From positions 1-50,568 of IMG/VR virus record IMGVR_UViG_3300045929_000104: a stretch of DNA of 50,568 nt. One strand, given 5' to 3'. Numbering within the stretch: the stretch's first letter is position 1; each line of letters starts with the position of its first letter. This document shows, in pieces, positions 30,849-31,108 of this stretch. Source of the stretch: a virus (lineage: Duplodnaviria > Caudoviricetes). The notes beneath the pieces are model-generated. The model was not told where the DNA came from, searched no databases, and saw nothing but the letters and a program-made list of their open reading frames with translations. Both the position numbers and the translations under genes were made by a program.

Positions 30849-31108
30849 CTGGGTGGGTTGGTTGTTGCGCGCACACGACACGATCTACCTGGATAGGTTG
30901 GCGCGTGGGGGATTCCATACCCCCATTCTCGGGAAACCCAAGTCTTGTGTTAGATGAACGCGCCATAGAGTTCAATTGCCCCGTTTCGGGTCACAACCCG
31001 GGGCCACGGTTGCGGAGATCGTCATGCGCACGATGACCCTTTCCACCCAGCCCCACCTATCCCTTCGCGGGGTGCTCGCCAGCAGAGCCCGCGTCTGTTT
31101 CGGTGGGG
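30849..31108 (-). ncRNA. Candidate large structured RNA or ssDNA element, family unknown
   Basis: Nested stems on the minus strand: ctgggtgg/ccacccag; cgtgcgcatg-acgatct/agatcgt-cgtgtgcgcg; gccccg/cggggc; ggcgcgt/acgcgcc; ggggg/ccccc; ccccacc/ggtgggg. G-U pairs work only on the minus strand. Confidence 0.55.

Follow-up and report, generated by a model that had tools for sequence, protein, structure and literature searches.

What is a large, multi-branched and apparently non-coding structure between two small genes of a soil phage, and where does it come from? The locus belongs to the virus record IMGVR_UViG_3300045929_000104 (Duplodnaviria; Caudoviricetes), which was analysed over its whole length of 50,568 bp (the window); the sequence stems from soil metagenomes, and the record is complete, with direct terminal repeats of 127 nucleotides (nt). 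The element occupies positions 30849-31108 of the minus strand (260 nt), within a 368-nt gene-free gap flanked by the minus-strand genes p83 and p65, and lies ~48 nt upstream of p65 in the same orientation. The element proves to be the phage copy of a modular gene for a structured RNA whose usual place is inside bacterial insertion sequences (ISs); the explanation of its origin and function that is built on this is put forward with about even confidence. The module is composed of four parts: (i) a -10 box; (ii) Domain 1 (D1), in which a sequence-invariant 9x9-nt loop is combined with three covarying helices; (iii) Domain 2 (D2), a rod of variable length; and (iv) a single-stranded AUGCCU-N-AAAA motif.

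Fold of the phage element

The preliminary description of the element, made from the sequence by eye, had listed a set of helices, placed them on the minus strand co-linear with the surrounding operon and regarded the open reading frames (ORFs) in the region as spurious. All listed helices recur in the minimum free energy (MFE) fold of the minus strand, which, at -124.3 kcal/mol, is more stable than expected for shuffled sequence (z-score -4.73; none of 200 dinucleotide shuffles was as stable); the plus strand folds with -118.6 kcal/mol (z -4.21). When 260-nt segments were slid across positions 28600-33149 (34 segments, 40 shuffles each), only 30810-31069 reached a z-score of -4.47, the next best being -2.99. 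ARAGORN located no tRNA or tmRNA gene in the window, as had been judged by eye, and at the gathering thresholds of Rfam 15, with riboswitch, ribozyme, group I/II intron, omega-RNA, RNase P, SRP and 6S families included, the whole genome gave no match; at E<=10, three weak, chance-level matches were returned for 30500-31500.

D1 is built from the helices P1 (CCCCACC/GGUGGGG), P2 (GCGGG/CCCGC) and P3 (UGCU/AGCA), with the conserved internal loop GAAACAGAC ... GAAGGGAUA inside P1. D2 starts directly after P1, closes nt 1 to nt 202 of its 203 nt and ends one nucleotide before UAUGCCUUCUUCAAAAC; it consists of the closing helix CUGGGUGG/CCACCCAG, a stem of 17 pairs and a junction with four arms, with six hairpins overall, and its inner helices are gccccg/cggggc, ggcgcgt/acgcgcc, cttggg/cccgag, ggggg/ccccc and acct/aggt. 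The sequence UAUGCCUUCUUCAAAAC (30832-30848) represents the 3' motif, which is ranked low by a position weight matrix (PWM) of fixed spacing because its spacer measures 5 nt. A terminator-like hairpin is not present 3' of the phage element (z +0.90). Contigs from four soil sequencing runs cover the element in pieces only, and one low-depth contig carries two changes (30912 and 30917), both in the loop of the UAUGGAAU hairpin, which is too thin to serve as evidence. The coordinates of the domains and of the neighbouring features are collected in Table 1.

Table 1. Features of the phage locus and of the left genome end (positions of the window).
Feature	Position	Strand	Remarks
Domain 1 (D1)	31051..31108	-	P1, internal loop, P2, CUC bulge, P3 with purine-rich tetraloop; z -3.90 alone
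Domain 2 (D2)	30849..31050	-	Closed multi-branched domain; MFE -92.4 kcal/mol, z -5.12
3' motif UAUGCCUUCUUCAAAACGCCGCGCAG	30823..30848	-	Matches family AUGCCU-N(1-6)-AAAA directly 3' of D2 (family alignment A2)
Solo second copy of CCACCCAnUAUGCCU-N-AAAACGCCGCGCAG, without D1 or D2	839..873	+	839-870 at 85% identity, E 1e-4
p83, upstream neighbour	31151..31402	-	Small Cys-rich protein; tblastn matches in 7 related loci; from the ORF list
p65, downstream neighbour	30585..30782	-	Small CxxC...C protein; tblastn matches in 13 related loci
Family-A DNA polymerase, C-terminal piece of split gene	31305..32237	-	phrog_17 positions 1036-1232; 30 homologues, 299-360 amino acids (aa)
Family-A DNA polymerase, first piece	36287-37960	-	Exonuclease and beginning of polymerase domain

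A family of related RNAs in bacteria

The lead to relatives came from positions 31057-31101, which drew many unrelated high-depth soil contigs at 85-90% identity, whose flanks were unlike the window but similar to one another. Searched with BLAST against plasmids, the same segment yielded a weak match (E 2, 80% identity) on plasmid pACPOL3 of the cultured Acidisarcina polymorpha SBC82, at ~80.2 kb and 24 nt 3' of an annotated IS110-family transposase gene (locus L029); window and plasmid have the sequence GAAAC-GA-GCGGGCTCTGCTGG-AGCA-GGGATA in common. A search pattern of 20 fixed bases taken from this comparison matched at least 120 stretches in a collection of species-representative genomes. 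The listed loci plus L029 hold 122 pattern matches, 110 of which carry a GAAAC-type sequence just upstream and are counted as members of the family, so that it has at least 110 members; the remaining 12 were discarded as chance matches in coding-like DNA. According to the record titles, the listed members come from Acidobacteriota, Planctomycetota, Verrucomicrobiota, Kiritimatiellia, Lentisphaerota, Bacteroidota, Sumerlaeota and Proteobacteria. A covariance model (R1), constructed from 40 bacterial D1 sequences with the window excluded, detected D1 in 12 of 151 Acidobacteriota and 7 of 151 Verrucomicrobiota genomes sampled.

Among viruses, an exact-pattern scan of 2.9 million viral contigs gave three matches, all of them chance occurrences in coding-like sequence that have neither GAAAC nor the layout of the module, and blastn against 50,697 phage records returned nothing with a 1-kb query and only chance similarity (E 8) with an 81-nt D1 query. 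Rfam 15 contains nothing relevant to three plasmid loci, including the module-bearing L029, or to locus L033. No description of a D1-D2 RNA was found in the literature searched, which included a text search for a 14-mer and left supplements and subscription journals outside reach. The module is thus a widespread structured RNA that is apparently unnamed. The earlier assignment to an undescribed phage RNA holds in part: the element is a structured non-coding RNA absent from Rfam 15, whereas it is not specific to phages, as D1 and the layout belong to a bacterial module carried mainly by IS3- and IS110-type elements.

Layout and covariation

In the family, D1 comprises P1, an internal loop of 9x9 nt (U-GAAACGGAA / GAGGGAUA), P2, a CUC bulge and P3 with a purine tetraloop, and D2 is a closed rod of 29-142 nt with tandem G-A loops, of which the 203-nt phage domain is the largest version seen. 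In 37 of 40 non-redundant members, 0-5 nt separate P1 from the start of D2, and 1-5 nt lie between its end and AUGCCU. The single-stranded AUGCCU-N(1-6)-AAAA follows D2 in 90 of the 110 listed members found by pattern; of 24 examined loci that the model had found, 13 had a D1 core recognised by a relaxed expression, and the 3' motif is present in 11 of the 13, 71-106 nt after D1. On the 5' side, a -10 box (TAnAAT) ends 6-7 nt before P1: of the 75 distinct sequences compared upstream of D1, 62 have A at -27 and 57 have T at -23. L113 has a full promoter, TTGACT-16-TATGCT.

The D1 helices and the D2 rod all show compensatory changes, which gives the predicted structure comparative backing. For P1, the 40 non-redundant D1 sequences have such changes in all seven pairs, and 94.7% of the cells are paired, as opposed to 25-50% when the partners are slid by 1-3 columns. 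P2 and P3 had no freedom to covary in this set because the search pattern fixed their 5' strands; in alignment A4, which is made up of 14 model-found Acidobacteriota members free of the pattern, both partners change in 11 of 16 pairs (P2 4/5, P3 3/4), with 95.9% of cells paired. In the D2 rod, compared in 21 members that were selected for having a canonical D2, both sides change in 10 of 15 pairs. G-U pairs are common on the strand that corresponds to the minus strand of the window (pair 21-43 in P2: 22 GC and 17 GU; pair 3-61: 15 GC and 12 GU); these would be C-A on the other strand, which indicates that the structure is selected on one strand and independently confirms the direction assigned earlier. 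Members also differ by 1-nt insertions or deletions (indels) inside D1 (columns 42 and 47-48 of alignment A3), which excludes a coding frame, and conservation follows base pairing, in line with the non-coding character ascribed to the element from the start.

Two further features of the family concern possible transcript ends. A terminator-like hairpin occurs 3' of the 3' motif in several members and at the left-end copy of the motif in the phage. In 4 of 40 members from lower-GC lineages (L113 1251-1290, L035, L086 and L105), a U tract comes after the apical D2 hairpin, which thereby resembles an intrinsic terminator inside the rod; an attenuator was considered and rejected, as at least five U within 9 nt of this hairpin are found in these four members only.

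Membership of the phage element

R1 matches the window end to end at 31049-31110 (minus strand) with 66.6 bits (E 4.8e-15), the next match in the 50.6-kb genome scoring 12.5 bits. Since the family pattern came from the window, 20 of the 62 positions match by construction; beyond the pattern, the window agrees with the family at GAAAC, AGCA and CCCGC and in a paired P1 of different sequence, and every conserved D1 position is intact. The closest D1 (AAACAGAC...AGCACCCCGC) belongs to a Verrucomicrobiota genome (L186). BLAST similarity between the window and family members is limited to 31043-31120. Judged by the D1 match, the placement of D2 and the 3' motif, the phage element is a member of the IS-borne RNA module.

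Insertion-sequence context

Insertion sequences by definition carry only what transposition needs, and their non-coding ends were largely ignored before the advent of bridge RNAs, seekRNAs and omega-RNAs. Pfam searches with ORFs next to the module identified rve (IS3-type) in five of ten and DEDD_Tnp_IS110 together with Transposase_20 in two; the three ORFs with no match are antisense artefacts, whose opposite strand encodes rve and HTH_Tnp_1. With profiles built for this analysis, the context of the 110 listed members was assigned as follows: rve upstream on the same strand in 36, rve convergent in 23, IS110-type upstream in 14, no transposase found in 36 and a distant one in 1, some of the loci with none being cut by locus ends. 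A transposase next to the module (73 of 110) is therefore the usual context and not a strict requirement. One unassigned locus carries an ISL3 transposase in divergent orientation, and others lie near infC or prmC. The module is located at the transposase-distal end of the IS, in either orientation in IS3-type elements, and the far-side genes beyond it are mutually unrelated.

Comparison of copies within genomes places the module inside the transposed unit, which extends, relative to D1, from -1366 to +206 in a Bryobacterales element, from -138 to +1423 in Planctomycetia, from -1368 to +202 in an IS110-type element and from -117 to +1419 in a second Bryobacterales IS. The first Bryobacterales element is bounded by inverted repeats of the form TG...CA, and its copies at unrelated sites are flanked by target duplications of 4 bp. 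It is thereby identified as an active IS3-family element of the ordinary kind that carries an additional RNA gene, placed between orfB and its right end. Three genomes hold 51, 23 and 9 D1 copies; in the first, ~18 copies accompany one transposase and many others a second IS (five copies examined). This 9-Mb Bryobacterales genome (G001) contains two IS3-family elements that differ in the direction of the RNA gene, sense in one and antisense to orfB in the other (loci L033, L155, L167, L171-L184 and L194-L198). IS110-type carriers (L044, L079, L093, L134, L089 and L149) end with a conserved AAAAnGCTTGACTTC..AGAGAATCT ~150-190 nt after D1, including a -35-like TTGACT 15 nt from the element end, as expected of a junction promoter formed on circularisation.

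In the phage genome itself, neither rve nor DEDD_Tnp_IS110 nor Transposase_20 was matched at E<=10. As to its relatives, 30 homologues of the polymerase C-terminal piece were collected, along with 26 related loci that encode it, the nearest with 59% amino-acid identity. Nucleotide similarity to the element is absent from these 26 loci, which share the split polymerase (blastn E>=0.13; nhmmer none). The slot between p83 and p65 usually encodes a small protein with a GRIEVEPR ending in related phages, and a profile of seven such proteins matched no frame of the gap in the window (best -0.2 bits). Because the slot of the relatives encodes this protein and has no similarity to the element, the element, as far as synteny tells, took the place of the small gene or was inserted instead of it in this phage lineage only.

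Comparison with known systems

The closest analogue in the readable literature is, by its description, Ssr9/MITEPpu9. In the accessible part of the report, Ssr9 is a small RNA gene with its own promoter just downstream of the ISPpu9 transposase gene of Pseudomonas putida, present in some IS copies and elsewhere, and read by its authors as a hitchhiking module (PMC12288879). The same part of that report names three P. putida strains only, and one IS110-family element (PMC12288879). The module described here is similar, at the level of such descriptions, in being a promoter-bearing RNA gene near an IS transposase, and differs from what is given there in occurring in many phyla, with at least three transposase families, in both orientations and in a phage.

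Other comparisons concern mobile elements and phages more generally. The omega-RNAs of TnpB and IscB (Rfam HEARO, IS605-orfB) are structured RNAs borne at transposon 3' ends; unlike them, the module has no match in Rfam 15, and no TnpB or IscB domain was found among the neighbour proteins scanned. GOLLD and ROOL are big, multi-branched non-coding RNAs of phages and prophages represented in Rfam; the phage element differs in having no Rfam match and in a small conserved core that it has in common with insertion sequences. The IS3 family is, to our knowledge, not known to use RNA.

A possible route to the phage and a proposed function in trans

The phage may have acquired the module from a mobile element of its host, after which the copy would have lost its own promoter and D2 would have expanded. 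As the phage copy has no -10 box and no sigma-70-like promoter occurs within 30300-31700, where no relevant terminator was found either, the copy is probably co-transcribed with the replication genes of the minus strand, as the segment of their operon that lies between p83 and p65.

As to function, a tentative proposal, held with somewhat less than even confidence, is that the module encodes a self-contained 'cargo' RNA that would act in trans, to the benefit of the mobile element that carries it. The invariant D1 loop would bind a candidate partner conserved across phyla, either a host protein or a small ligand, and D2 would serve as a scaffold. This proposal draws on the promoter of its own, on the occurrence in either orientation in IS3-type elements, on the presence in unrelated transposase families and a phage, and on near-invariant loops between covarying stems. 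A bolder version, which must be called doubtful, regards D1-D2 as a new functional RNA class, either a ribozyme or a sensor of a universally conserved ligand or protein, that phages and three or more unrelated transposase families would trade and that would tune the activity of its carriers.

What makes the family of interest is an RNA that is strongly conserved, covaries and has a promoter of its own, located at the ends of IS3-type and IS110-type elements, with one copy beside an ISL3-type gene, and spread over many phyla and one phage. If functional, it would regulate transposition or serve it as a cofactor in a new way, or else be a portable RNA gene exchanged by mobile elements, and the copy on a plasmid of a cultured bacterium offers a cheap, testable entry. 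For phage annotation, the case illustrates that an 'orphan' structured gap may be explicable via bacterial transposons rather than via related phages.

Several points weigh against the origin and the function proposed here. Transcription and the ends of the RNA are deduced from sequence, and the argument for a mechanism in trans comes down to orientation-independence and conservation. The phage copy lacks the -10 box, having ATACAC/TACACA at that position, and its D2 has no sequence similarity to any family member. The inner branches of this D2 are thermodynamic predictions, since no homologue of them was found; as they have no comparative support, the expansion could reflect drift, with the copy being a relic in decay. 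The search pattern was derived from the window, which partly builds in the invariance of GCGGGCUCUGCUGG and GGGAUA in alignments A2 and A3; only A4 escapes this, and A4 was fitted to the model. Finally, 50 of the 73 transposase-linked listed copies read outward from the transposase, which fits a role in cis as well.

Alternative interpretations

Such a role in cis, which is judged unlikely, would make the module a leader or riboregulator: D1 would sense a ligand or protein and control downstream genes, namely the transposase after circularisation of the IS, and p65 and the genes that follow in the phage. Formation of circles in copy-out-paste-in IS families would put outward-reading copies (36 rve and 14 IS110-type) upstream of the transposase. 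The position of the element ahead of the co-oriented p65, the solo 3' motif preceding the first plus-strand gene, and the resemblance of the conserved loop and covarying stems to an aptamer all agree with this. But the 23 convergent copies are directed into the transposase gene from its 3' end, the sole ISL3 case is divergent, the terminator-like U tract is confined to 4 of 40 members, and no riboswitch in Rfam matches.

The module could also be a selfish hitchhiker, a passenger of any mobilising transposase in the manner of a miniature inverted-repeat transposable element (MITE), and the phage copy a decaying IS scar with no role. Its patchy distribution over the sampled Acidobacteriota and Verrucomicrobiota genomes, its association with three transposase families in both orientations, and the copies beside the housekeeping genes infC and prmC, with no transposase found, are in keeping with a passenger; the missing -10 box, the aberrant D2 and the small protein gene that related phages have in the same slot suit a scar. 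Ssr9/MITEPpu9 with ISPpu9 provides a precedent, to the extent described in the accessible text (PMC12288879). This reading is nevertheless considered improbable: all conserved D1 positions are intact in the phage, the phage D2 is more stable than its shuffles, not less (z -5.12), and D1 loops that are near-invariant across phyla while the stems covary indicate selection on the RNA itself.

A new self-cleaving ribozyme, processing transcripts of mobile elements by a cut near the D2/AUGCCU boundary or in the D1 loop, would account for invariant nucleotides concentrated in internal loops between covarying helices, for the association with mobile elements and for a conserved single-stranded motif exactly at a domain boundary. 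GAAAC presumably resembles loop B of the hairpin ribozyme, which is a weak likeness, and none of the ribozyme families in Rfam 15 matches, so that this reading appears quite improbable.

The location of the first match outside the window, close to an annotated IS110-family transposase gene, brings to mind a guide of the bridge RNA or seekRNA type for an IS110-family recombinase supplied in trans. Bridge RNAs and seekRNAs (IS110, IS1111) are likewise structured RNAs in a non-coding IS end, and 14 of the 110 listed members lie in the downstream non-coding region, the site of IS1111-type seekRNAs according to the accessible part of PMC11187229. Unlike these guides, as they are described there, most listed members accompany DDE (rve) transposases with non-specific targets: 59 of 110 reside in IS3-type elements, found at unrelated sites with 4-bp duplications. 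The large D1 loop is invariant, not programmable; a real guide could be encoded in the 274-nt 5' non-coding region of L029; and the phage encodes no recombinase. Together, these points make a guide function very unlikely. A donor-site arrangement was considered separately, as the halves of the D1 loop resemble both strands of TGAAAATCCC in the 3' motif of some members; it was rejected, because the two do not covary (AAAACUC occurs while GGGAUA stays).

The preliminary description had named, besides an undescribed RNA, a primer RNA or a single-strand origin. A DNA-level element of this type, be it a single-strand origin, a primosome site or a primer-RNA gene for phage replication, would suit the location in the replication-gene cluster downstream of the polymerase pieces and the stable fold of the plus strand. 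It is regarded as highly improbable: the homologues lie inside insertion sequences and not at origins, the family has a conserved -10 box 6-7 nt before P1, and related phages do not have the element at the syntenic slot. That a small protein is encoded can practically be dismissed, as the overlapping ORFs of 63 aa (30972-31163) and 53 aa (30814-30975) are countered by the 1-nt indels in D1, by conservation that tracks base pairing and by the failure of the slot-protein profile of the relatives to fit any frame. Two more candidates were discarded: a group I or II intron, as relatives have p83 and p65 as distinct genes that a further small gene usually keeps apart, and AUGCCU as a start codon, as the frames that follow range from ~2 to 33 codons and are conserved for the first few residues only (read by eye).

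Genomic neighbourhood and the left end

The genes on the minus strand from ~44 kb down to 28.5 kb include both polymerase pieces. The start of p83 is likely an internal ATG near 31335. The ~4 kb between the polymerase pieces contain an HNH endonuclease (32305-32745, PF13392), a membrane-like ORF of 331 aa and small ORFs, one of which (32916-33311) has a LAGLIDADG-like motif by eye and no Pfam match. In relatives, the polymerase pieces are separate ORFs too, but only ~200 nt apart.

The solo copy of the 3' motif is the top PWM match in the genome (18.2 bits) and lies in the ~830-nt non-coding left end, ~90 nt upstream of the first plus-strand ORF (963). Motif and extension together read CCACCCAnTATGCCT-N-AAAACGCCGCGCAG, and a GGGGCG/CGCCCC hairpin comes next. 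Upstream of 839-873, the fold is no more stable than that of shuffled sequence (z +0.35), and D1 is not detected by R1 at this site (8.4 bits). This hints that the short 3'-motif segment may have a role of its own in the phage. Just upstream of the same ORF, at 935-950 (plus strand), a sigma-54-like site, TGGCACGCTCCTTGCA, was noticed, which we take to be a perfect match to the -24/-12 consensus TGGCAC-N5-TTGCA and which, if real, would presumably be unusual for a phage.

Two repeats complete the picture of the phage genome. A 39-nt sequence occurs twice on the plus strand, at 30852-30890 and 43688-43726 (74% identity), with ACGACACGATCTACCT common to it and the 3' strand of the long stem of the element, which may be due to chance. 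A second repeat, ACAaACACGCCCCCGC...ACAAT, is present in three copies, also on the plus strand (18913-18937, 34026-34050 and 46547-46571; 72-80% identity to the reference copy), and ends in a -10-like hexamer; the three copies are possibly phage promoters.

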